This document shows positions 60,501 to 63,500 of a DNA stretch of 64,000 nucleotides, in pieces; position 1 is the stretch's first letter, and each line of letters starts with the position of its first letter. The DNA is from a virus (taxonomy: Duplodnaviria > Heunggongvirae > Uroviricota > Caudoviricetes), in IMG/VR virus record IMGVR_UViG_2684622670_000009, positions 1 through 64,000 of that record; one strand, given 5' to 3'. The position numbers are program-made.

Positions 60501-63500
60501 ATCATGATCTGGCGTACTCTTGCGACCGACACCTTTGACATCGCTCTGCCGGTTAACCAGTCCTTTGATGTATGGGCAACCATCATTCGTGGCAAATTCC
60601 AGACTGTATATCGCGACATTATTGAGCGCGTTAAATCTTCTGGTGCGATGGGGATGTTTGCTGGTGCTGATGCAGCATCTTTCTTCAAACAGTTGCCGAA
60701 GGATTTCTTCCAGCCAGCCGAAGACTATATCCAGACTCCGTATGTTCACTACATCGGTACCCTGTTCGGTAACGTGAAAGTGTACGAAGTACCTGCTGGT
60801 ATTTGTAAGAACTTAACGACAGAGAACATTCAGCTCAGCTCGATGGATGTGCTGTGCTACGTCCGTGATGAAAATCCGGGTAAAGCAGGCTTCGTGACTG
60901 GTGATGCTGTCCCGGCCATCCCGTTCCAGCATCCGACCACTCCGGCGCTGGTCAACCGTACCACGCTGTGGGGTTCGGCTATCAACGATATGCACCCACG
61001 CAACGGCGCTGATTACTTCACTCGTGTAACGCTGACAATGGCCAAAAAAGGCGGGCTTAACTTCATTAGCGGCGACACGATTGATGCCGGTGACTCTGAG
61101 TAATCAGGGGAAGTTCTCCGTTTAACATAGCGCCCCCGTGCGGGGCGCATAACAGGGAAAGTTATGTCTCAATATTCAATTCAACAGTCATTAGGTAATG
61201 CATCCGGCGTCGCGGTTAGCCCGATCAATGCCGATGCGACGTTATCTACCGGTGTTGCATTAAATAGCAGCTTGTGGGCTGGTATTGGCGTATTTGCGCG
61301 TGGCAAGCCGTTTACTGTTCTTGCGGTTACTGAGTCCAATTACGAAGATGTTCTCGGCGAACCGCTGAAACCGTCTTCCGGCTCACAGTTCGAATCAATT
61401 CGTCATGTGTACGAAGCTATTCAGCAAACGTCTGGTTACGTTGTTCGTGCTGTTCCGGATGATGCGAAGTTCCCGATTATCATGTTCGATGAATCAGGCG
61501 AACCGGCTTACAGCGCGTTGCCATACGGTTCTGAAATTGAACTTGATAGCGGCGAAGCCTTTGCGATCTACGTTGATGACGGCGACCCATGCGTTTCACC
61601 TACGCGTGAGTTAACCATCGAAACGGCAGCTGCGGACAGCGCAGATAATGAACGCTTCCTCCTGAAACTGACCCAGACGACTTCGCTCGGTGTGGTTACG
61701 ACCCTGGAGACACATATTGTATCTTTGGCGGAAGAAGCGAAAGATGACATGGGCCGATTGTGTTATCTGCCTACGGCTCTGGAAGCCCGTTCTAAATATC
61801 TGCGCGCGGTTGTTAATGAAGAGCTGATTTCGACCGCGAAAGTAACAAATAAAAAATCACTGGCGGTACCAACGGCGATCAGTCGAAAATCTCCACCGAA
61901 GCCTACCTGCGTGCGGTTAAGGTGCTGAACAATGCGCCGTACATGTACACCGCTGTTCTCGGCCTGGGTTGCTATGACAATGCGGCGATCACCGCATTAG
62001 GTAATATCTGTTCTGATCGCCTGATTGATGGCTTCTTTGATGTCAAACCGACATTGACGTATACGGAAGCGCTCTCTGCTGTTGAAGATACCGGTTTACT
62101 TGGTACCGATTATGTAAGCTGTGCTTTCTATCACTACCCGTTCTCCTGCAAAGACAAATGGACCCAATCCCGTGTTGTCTTCGGTTTGTCTGGCACGGCG
62201 TATGCGGCAAAAGCCCGTGGCGTCAAGAAAAACTCTGATGTCGGCGGTTGGCATTATTCTCCTGCTGGAGAAGAACGCGCCATCATTGCTCGTGCGTCAA
62301 TTCAACCGCTGTATCCGGAGGATACCCCAGACGAAGAAGCAATGGTCAAGGGCCGTCTCAATAAAGTATCTGTTGGCACCTCTGGCCAGATGATCATCGA
62401 CGATGCTTTAACTTGCTGCACGCAGGATAACTATCTGCACTTCCAGCACGTCCCATCCCTGATGAATGCAATCAGCCGTTTCTTTGTCCAGTTAGCACGC
62501 CAGATGAAGCATAGCCCTGATGGTATTACTGCCGCTGGTCTGACTAAAGGGATGACCAAACTTTTGGATCGCTTTGTCGCTGCCGGTGCTCTGGTGGCTC
62601 CTCGTGATCCGGATGCTGACGGTACAGAACCGTATGTGCTGAAAGTTACGCAGGCGGAATTCGATAAATGGGAAGTGGTCTGGGCCTGCTGCCCGACAGG
62701 TGTCGCCCGTCGTATCCAGGGCATACCGCTGCTTATTAAGTAAGGGAATACAATGAGCAAAAACTTTTTTCAATCCGGGGCATTTTTGGGGAATGGCCTG
62801 TCCCGTTTCGCTTTAAACGCTGATCCGGTACAGCTGATGGAATCTGCCCGTGCAAGTGCCCAACCGCCAACAGATCCGGAGATTAATAATGACCAGGAAC
62901 CGGCGGCACAGATTAACGAGAATGTTCAATCTGACCTGGCCCCTGATCAAATCCTGGAGGGGAAAGACGGTAAAGAATGGACTGTCGAACAGGCGCACCA
63001 GATGATTCTGGAAGCTGCAAATCGAAGTGCTATGCAGAATGCGTTGAGTAATGCGGCTGATGCCGTTTTCGCCTGGGCTGATAGCGGTGATCTGACTTTC
63101 GACTCTCTTGATGGTTTTGTTCAGGCTATCGCTGGCATCTCTGATGATGACGACTCCGAAGTTACAGAAGAACAGGATGATGCCTATAACGAAGCATGGA
63201 CAAATGTTGCTGACTTCCTCGCAGCATGCGGTGTAGATGATGACCTGATCGAAGCACTGGCTGACGATGAAGACGACGACGCAGCTGCTGATGTCGGTTC
63301 CGCTATTGCAGGTTTGGATAGCGATGACCGCGACGAACTGGAAGCTGCGTTTGTTGTTGCTGGCACTTCTGATGAAATGCTGACCGAAGCATTTAAGAAA
63401 GTTGTTCGTAACGGTGAGATCAAACTTATCCGTAAACGCCTGCGTAAAAAACGTCTGACAGCGGCTCAAAAATCGGCGCTGAAAAAAGCGCGTCGTAAAG

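Follow-up and report, generated by a model that had tools for sequence, protein, structure and literature searches.

The 64,000-nucleotide (nt) stretch of viral DNA analyzed here (positions 1 to 64,000 of the IMG/VR record IMGVR_UViG_2684622670_000009; hereafter the window) is, judged by synteny and identity, part of a P1-like phage-plasmid related to Punavirus, and its tail sheath gene, gene 22, is split into two open reading frames (ORFs). We find that this split is very probably a genuine inactivating 10-bp deletion in a decaying P1/P7-like phage-plasmid. A second gene, pmgS, is interrupted beside an identical sequence by the loss of a single base, and we infer that both lesions are real rather than assembly errors. 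The position and nature of both lesions, as well as their absence from all relatives examined, were established by comparison with related phages and plasmids.

The gene 22 pseudogene occupies positions 61164..62743 on the + strand and measures 1580 nt vs 1590 nt in intact relatives. As a sequence-only reading of the window had described, it consists of two contiguous ORFs on the + strand (61164-61928 and 61922-62743), the second of which lies in the -1 frame relative to the first; that frame is open from 61853, the codon directly before it (61850-61852) being TAA. The 5′ ORF encodes 254 amino acids (predicted product 27.2 kDa), that is, 234 native codons followed by 20 out-of-frame codons and a TGA. 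The 3′ ORF (273 amino acids) has an internal GTG start and corresponds to native residues 257-529 in the numbering obtained with tblastn, and its translation is unlikely.

That the broken gene encodes the sheath, which the same reading had put forward with an “if”, was borne out by several independent comparisons. Both fragments match PHROG 1036 “tail sheath”, the first over profile positions 1-218 (E = 1e-89) and the second over positions 256-531 (E = 1e-125). In tblastn searches, residues 1-234 of the P7 sheath aligned to 61164-61865 in frame 3 (97.9% identity) and residues 235-529 to 61856-62740 in frame 2 (97.6% identity). P1 gene 22 and its P7 counterpart upf55.8 are annotated as tail sheath, and the Gp22 chain in the PDB, a 529-residue chain of P1 in entries 8jaj, 8jan, and 9ay3-5, matches P7 residues 1-529. 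No Pfam domain was found in gp22 or in either fragment, whereas PHROGs and the PDB did give matches. By homology along the whole PHROG 1036 profile, the split gene is the P1-type tail sheath gene, and as in P1 and P7 (gp22/Upf55.8; cryo-EM models 8jaj/8jan, PMC10304247) its locus lies between gene 23 and gene 21. It differs from the P1/P7 gene in being split after codon 234 by the 10-bp deletion, in an allele that occurs in none of the ~900 relatives examined. Since the sheath is not encoded by a single uninterrupted ORF, the frame changing after codon 234, gene 22 is on the evidence of its reading frame a pseudogene of the sheath family and not a functional member.

Comparison with relatives locates the lesion beside, and not within, the homopolymer. 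In every relative matched by megablast, 1701 nt of the query span 1711 nt, and an alignment with P1, P7, and the Escherichia albertii plasmid p2RM9974 shows that the window lacks 10 bp directly 3′ of an unchanged A6 run; P1, P7, and the E. albertii plasmid have in common the sequence ACAAATAAAAAATC with its six As. The nonamer AATAAAAAA at 61848-61856 (+), which encodes Asn-Lys-Lys (AAT AAA AAA) and contains the A6 run at 61851-61856, is thus the same as in the intact relatives and is not the lesion. Among 80 IMG/VR relatives recovered with the P7 protein, all have an uninterrupted gene 22 of 529 codons, and in all 80 loci AAT or AAC is followed by AAA AAA TC, with an A7 run in none. The -1 relation of the two frames arises because 10 = 3 × 3 + 1 bases were lost. 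Re-insertion of the 10 bp into the window yields a stop-free ORF of 1590 nt encoding 529 amino acids and 57.1 kDa, as in P1 and P7, in agreement with the full-length product of about 57 kDa that had been anticipated from the sequence.

The lost bases correspond to one unit of a tandem direct repeat with the pattern (TCACTGGCGn) × 2 that starts right after the A6 run. P7 reads AAAAAA-TCACTGGCGT-TCACTGGCGG-TACC and the window AAAAAA-TCACTGGCGG-TACC, so that the two-unit, 20-bp form at the position of 61857 is TCACTGGCGTTCACTGGCGG and the surviving copy, TCACTGGCGG at 61857-61866 (+), contains the deletion junction. As nine of the 10 bases repeat, the breakpoint may lie anywhere within 61857-61866. 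The perfect 9-bp repeat is a minority allele, present in P7, in two of the 80 IMG/VR loci, and in 19 plasmids of PLSDB, all 19 of which are identical to the window over a neighborhood of 91 nt except for the gap; most relatives have imperfect versions, for example TCGTTGGCG/TCACTGGCG. Close direct repeats (at least 9 bp, period 9-15) number only five in 100 kb of P7, the gene 22 repeat among them, which makes it a plausible hot spot for slippage.

A short tandem repeat that has lost exactly one period but keeps a copy bears the footprint of slipped-strand mispairing, and deletions between short direct repeats of this kind are known from the classic lacI deletion spectra and are explained by Streisinger-type misalignment. 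The deletion in gene 22 resembles these cases: the ancestral allele carries a short direct repeat (9 bp, perfect, at a period of 10), the gap is exactly one period long, and a copy remains, with nothing unusual to set it apart. Judged from this footprint, slipped-strand mispairing during replication would be the most likely cause for the removal of the 10-bp unit.

The second lesion lies in pmgS (shtB in P7, annotated as “sheath contraction”), a pseudogene at 32536..33797 on the - strand that is divided into ORFs 33054-33797 and 32536-33108, both halves of which match PHROG 1660. One C of the + strand is missing between 33164 and 33165, equivalent to a coding-strand G after an A6 run. The nonamer AATAAAAAA recurs here at 33165-33173 (-) and encodes Asn-Lys-Lys in PmgS as it does in the sheath. 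The run is A6 in P1, P7, and all 80 IMG/VR relatives, every one of the 80 reading AATAAAAAAGCAG (A6 followed by G), and an intact ORF of 420 codons is present in 79 of them. With the G re-added, the window's pmgS becomes a clean ORF of 420 amino acids that differs from P7 at 41 nt and 10 amino acids. The pmgS deletion junction is absent from IMG/VR and from the GTDB representatives; a megablast search of plasmids with 96 nt around the site gave no match, the query probably being too short and too divergent for the 28-nt exact word. By these comparisons pmgS is a second morphogenesis pseudogene, with a 1-bp deletion independent of the sheath lesion. The claim that both breaks share one context therefore stands for the identical nonamer found at each, but not for a shared change in run length, as 10 bp were lost in one case and a single G in the other.

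The break in gene 22 falls between residues 234 and 235, for which the published structure of the P1 tail gives a detailed frame of reference. The protein is composed of an N-terminal strand (residues 3-34), domain II (35-99 and 243-425), domain III (100-242), domain I (426-516), and a C-terminal strand (517-528) (PMC10304247). Domain I builds the wall of the sheath and makes contact with the tube, domain III extends outside the sheath and differs from other sheath proteins, and the N- and C-terminal strands of neighboring subunits form “handshake” sheets that join 53 hexameric rings, equivalent to 53 × 6 = 318 copies per tail of what was modeled as the only sheath protein of P1 (PMC10304247). 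With these limits (PMC10304247), the native part of the 5′ fragment comprises the N-terminal arm, the first part of domain II, and most of domain III, and its product lacks domain I and the C-terminal strand; what remains of domain II, together with domain I and the handshake strand of the C terminus, is encoded by the 3′ fragment. The frame shift after codon 234 would stop translation 20 codons later, and the resulting separation of domain I, the tube-contact helix, and the C-terminal handshake strand from the N-terminal arm would prevent the sheath from polymerizing. Because neither fragment could complete the handshake network, a contractile tail should not assemble. The expectation of the sequence-only reading that a real break in the sheath gene would leave the prophage without infectious particles is thus, on this structure-based inference, probably right.

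Several points weigh against reading the two breaks as genuine mutations with the consequences described above. The same nonamer stands immediately 5′ of each lesion, and a -1 shift would correct either one, which is unlikely to be a coincidence: on a rough estimate, built on the 100 A/T runs of at least six in the window, two random sites would both fall within 10 nt of such a run in ~0.2% of cases. An assembly or consensus error is possible, most plausibly for the 1-bp pmgS lesion beside its homopolymer. The intactness of the element was judged on about two-thirds of it, the tail fibers, baseplate, immI, and repL lying outside the window, and the loss of tail assembly is itself deduced from structure. 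The nonamer is not specific to the breaks, as AATAAAAAA occurs five times in the window vs 1.6 expected. The coincidence hints at a cause associated with the runs, either mutational or technical, and is more simply explained by mutation or base-calling that is biased near such runs than by rescue through slippage.

A purely technical origin would mean that the true plasmid has an intact gene 22 and pmgS and that the consensus dropped bases beside the A6 runs. This would agree with both lesions abutting a homopolymer, with the single-base nature of the pmgS lesion, which is the commonest type of consensus error, and with the absence of either lesion from any other record, which errors would also produce. 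We nonetheless consider it unlikely, as both runs have the A6 length found in every relative, the clean 10-bp loss of exactly one repeat unit is unlike a homopolymer-type error, and the lack of any other frame-broken P7 homologue in ~55 genes, together with the lack of internal stops, indicates a low overall rate of indel errors. A 20-bp repeat is, moreover, too short to be expected to collapse in assembly. The more specific version that the sequence-only reading had placed first, a homopolymer miscall in which A7 was read as A6 at both sites, can practically be dismissed. An additional A would indeed open both frames (computed for gene 22 and seen by inspection of the sequence for pmgS), and the 526-codon frame that A7 opens in gene 22 explains the appeal of the idea. 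However, the gene 22 site reads A6 plus the 10 further bases in P1, P7, E. albertii p2RM9974, and the whole set of 80 IMG/VR relatives, and the 80 pmgS loci have A6 plus G; no relative has A7, and the protein of an A7 allele would be three residues shorter than every known gp22. The proposed search for A7 in high-accuracy reads was accordingly mis-specified, as the ancestral sequence is not A7. Genuine inactivating mutations, formerly the second choice, are best supported, although the lesions are a 10-bp unit in gene 22 and 1 bp in pmgS.

The remaining alternative is slippage-dependent, leaky expression, in which both frames would be restored at U AAA AAA, either by ribosomes shifting -1 or by RNA polymerase inserting an extra A. 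Either a -1 shift or an A7 mRNA would open the 526-codon sheath frame, and each lesion follows the same nonamer and calls for a -1 change; the shifted products would contain KK-ITGG instead of KK-SLAFTGG in the sheath, with the expected junction peptide KKITGGTNGDQSK, and an Ala to Thr replacement in PmgS. The altered sheath residues are in domain III, which faces outside and is unlike other sheath proteins (PMC10304247). Taken further, the element could be a “leaky-defective” phage-plasmid whose non-independent lesions are kept because a little slippage at U AAA AAA, in translation or in transcription, yields a trickle of near-native sheath and PmgS and, with it, rare infectious particles. 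We hold leaky expression to be very improbable, and its extension to a maintained leaky-defective state equally so. The two-ORF layout occurs in none of more than 80 relatives, including P1 and P7, and is thus neither conserved nor programmed; the 0-frame reads AAU AAA AAA UCA, in which the heptamer U_AAA_AAA does not conform to X_XXY_YYZ and only the A_AAA tetramer re-pairs fully; and no stimulatory RNA fold was predicted downstream (minimum free energy -18.7 kcal/mol, with shuffled sequences averaging -18.5; z = -0.06). Frameshifting at tetramer motifs that lack a stimulator was measured in E. coli at 0.147%, against a background of 0.112% (PMC4066793), and shifting at ~0.1% is far too low for a protein needed in 318 copies per tail (PMC4066793, PMC10304247). 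The site shares with programmed -1 sites, such as dnaX (A_AAA_AAG) and those of IS3/IS911, the Lys-Lys codons AAA AAA before an overlap of a 0-frame and a -1-frame ORF, but it lacks the canonical heptamer, the stimulator, and the conservation, and its overlap was made by a private deletion. Slippage-dependent expression, which the sequence-only reading had ranked last, is not supported.

The deletion in gene 22 is, across the collections searched, private to the window. It was found in none of the 434 plasmids and none of the 370 complete E. coli genomes that matched a 91-nt junction query, the best hits all spanning 101 nt, and searches with exact and degenerate patterns showed the junction to be absent from the GTDB species representatives, IMG/VR, and JGI metagenomes. 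A shared or recurrent lesion, for example one due to phase variation, was consequently rejected, as searches for the deletion junctions in these collections, with PLSDB as the source of the plasmids, found none. The closest database match for the gene 22 region has 96.5% identity, and only the allele itself, absent from the databases searched, is new here. The restored gene 22 differs from that of P7 at 57 nt but at only 11 amino acids, and the gene therefore appears to have been under purifying selection until recently. Fourteen nucleotide changes are private to the window's gene 22, five of them non-synonymous, and four of these five fall at positions that are invariant in 83 relatives; this hints at relaxed selection after the break, in numbers too few for significance.

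Comparison with P7 by blastn gave collinear blocks over most of the window (93-98% nucleotide identity) that are interrupted by replaced modules, and tblastn with 70 P7 proteins located ~55 of them. The segment 56957-64000 corresponds to the parA-parB-23-22-21-pmgG segment of a P1/P7-like phage-plasmid. In the tblastn searches, mat, gene 22, and pmgS alone were split across frames; all high-scoring segment pairs were free of internal stops, and the homologues of full length terminate where a stop is expected. The candidacy of mat as a third broken gene was rejected, as the flagged 1-bp deletions fall in a leader that is not constrained in frame and represent a length polymorphism. An indel scan of mat (14256-14377, -) showed two 1-bp differences, one close to 14273 and one close to 14302, both within the 5′ end as annotated. 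In 80 relatives, the annotated ATG and a downstream ATG are 35 to 38 nt apart, 29 of the relatives carrying G4 and 28 carrying G5 in this stretch, and because of this variation in length the leader cannot be constrained by a reading frame. The start of mat in P1 and P7 is probably annotated too far upstream, the true start likely being the downstream ATG (MDKKICVV...), which follows a G-rich, Shine-Dalgarno-like run. The final tally is thus two frame-broken genes, gene 22 and pmgS, among ~55 homologues.

The ORFs of rep, par, phd/doc, and cre and a C1-sized ORF are open, and identity to P7 amounts to 100% for Phd and Doc and 98.5% for Cre. The best description of the element is that of a defective prophage maintained as a plasmid. 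P1-like plasmids have been found to show signs of defective phage-plasmids (Pfeifer and Rocha, Nat Commun 2024, PMC10879196), and the element resembles these in its P1-like backbone, its open rep, par, phd/doc, and cre ORFs, its accessory cargo, and its lost phage functions. It differs from them in that decay is early, with two small frameshifts and a replacement in darB and without wholesale loss of structural genes (PMC10879196). Gene 22 and pmgS should accordingly be annotated as pseudogenes in this P1-like plasmid, whose status as an inducible, transducing phage should not be taken for granted. The case adds one small example to a known route from P1-like phage-plasmid to plain plasmid and opens no new question, and it advises caution in that a frame break beside a homopolymer mimicked a run-length miscall, while relatives showed that the run was untouched and a repeat unit had been deleted alongside it.

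The neighbors of gene 22 are intact. Upstream in the same late operon, gene 23 for the major capsid protein (59397..61103, +) aligned in tblastn over residues 1-568 of 568 with 99.5% identity, in one frame and with zero internal stops. Downstream, the gene 21 homologue (62753..63568, +) is an intact ORF of 271 amino acids, the same length as its P7 counterpart upf54.2. Within 54871-59144, the products of the replication and partition genes are distant from those of P7 (RepA 42%, ParA 58%, and ParB 42.5% identical), while the flanking genes are 95-99% identical; judged from these identities, the rep/par region looks like a swapped incompatibility module.

Several further modules set the window apart from P7. 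For the type III res/mod genes of P7, tblastn found no match in the window. The variable region after phd/doc (25613-31690, +) holds a type I restriction-modification operon with hsdM (520 amino acids), hsdS (426 amino acids), and hsdR (1038 amino acids, EcoR124_C). Within hsdS, a perfect 12-bp tandem repeat, GAGCTTACAGCA, is present in 3.6 copies at 27691-27733 and is read in frame as (ELTA)n. In the EcoR124 family, the copy number of the TAEL repeat sets the length of the spacer in the recognition site, and the hsdS repeat would be another slippage-prone repeat in the same element. Of darB (region 4357-12617, +), which encodes 2255 amino acids in P7, only the first 62 codons are left, the rest having been replaced by cargo that includes an outer-membrane usher (6318-8759; Pfam Usher and PapC_N), a PapD-like chaperone (8752-9444), and a DsbA-like oxidoreductase (10202-10837), which together amount to a chaperone-usher fimbrial cluster on a P1-like backbone.

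The immI region at 18580-19883 (-) is divergent, with homologues of ant1 and icd that are 54% and 81% identical to P7, respectively, which suggests an antirepressor and immunity specificity different from that of P7. Within 45236-47036 (-), ARAGORN identified tRNA-Met(cat), tRNA-Ser(tga), and tRNA-Asn(gtt), where P7 is annotated with Ile, Thr, and Asn, so that the identity of one of the phage tRNAs seems to differ from that in P7.

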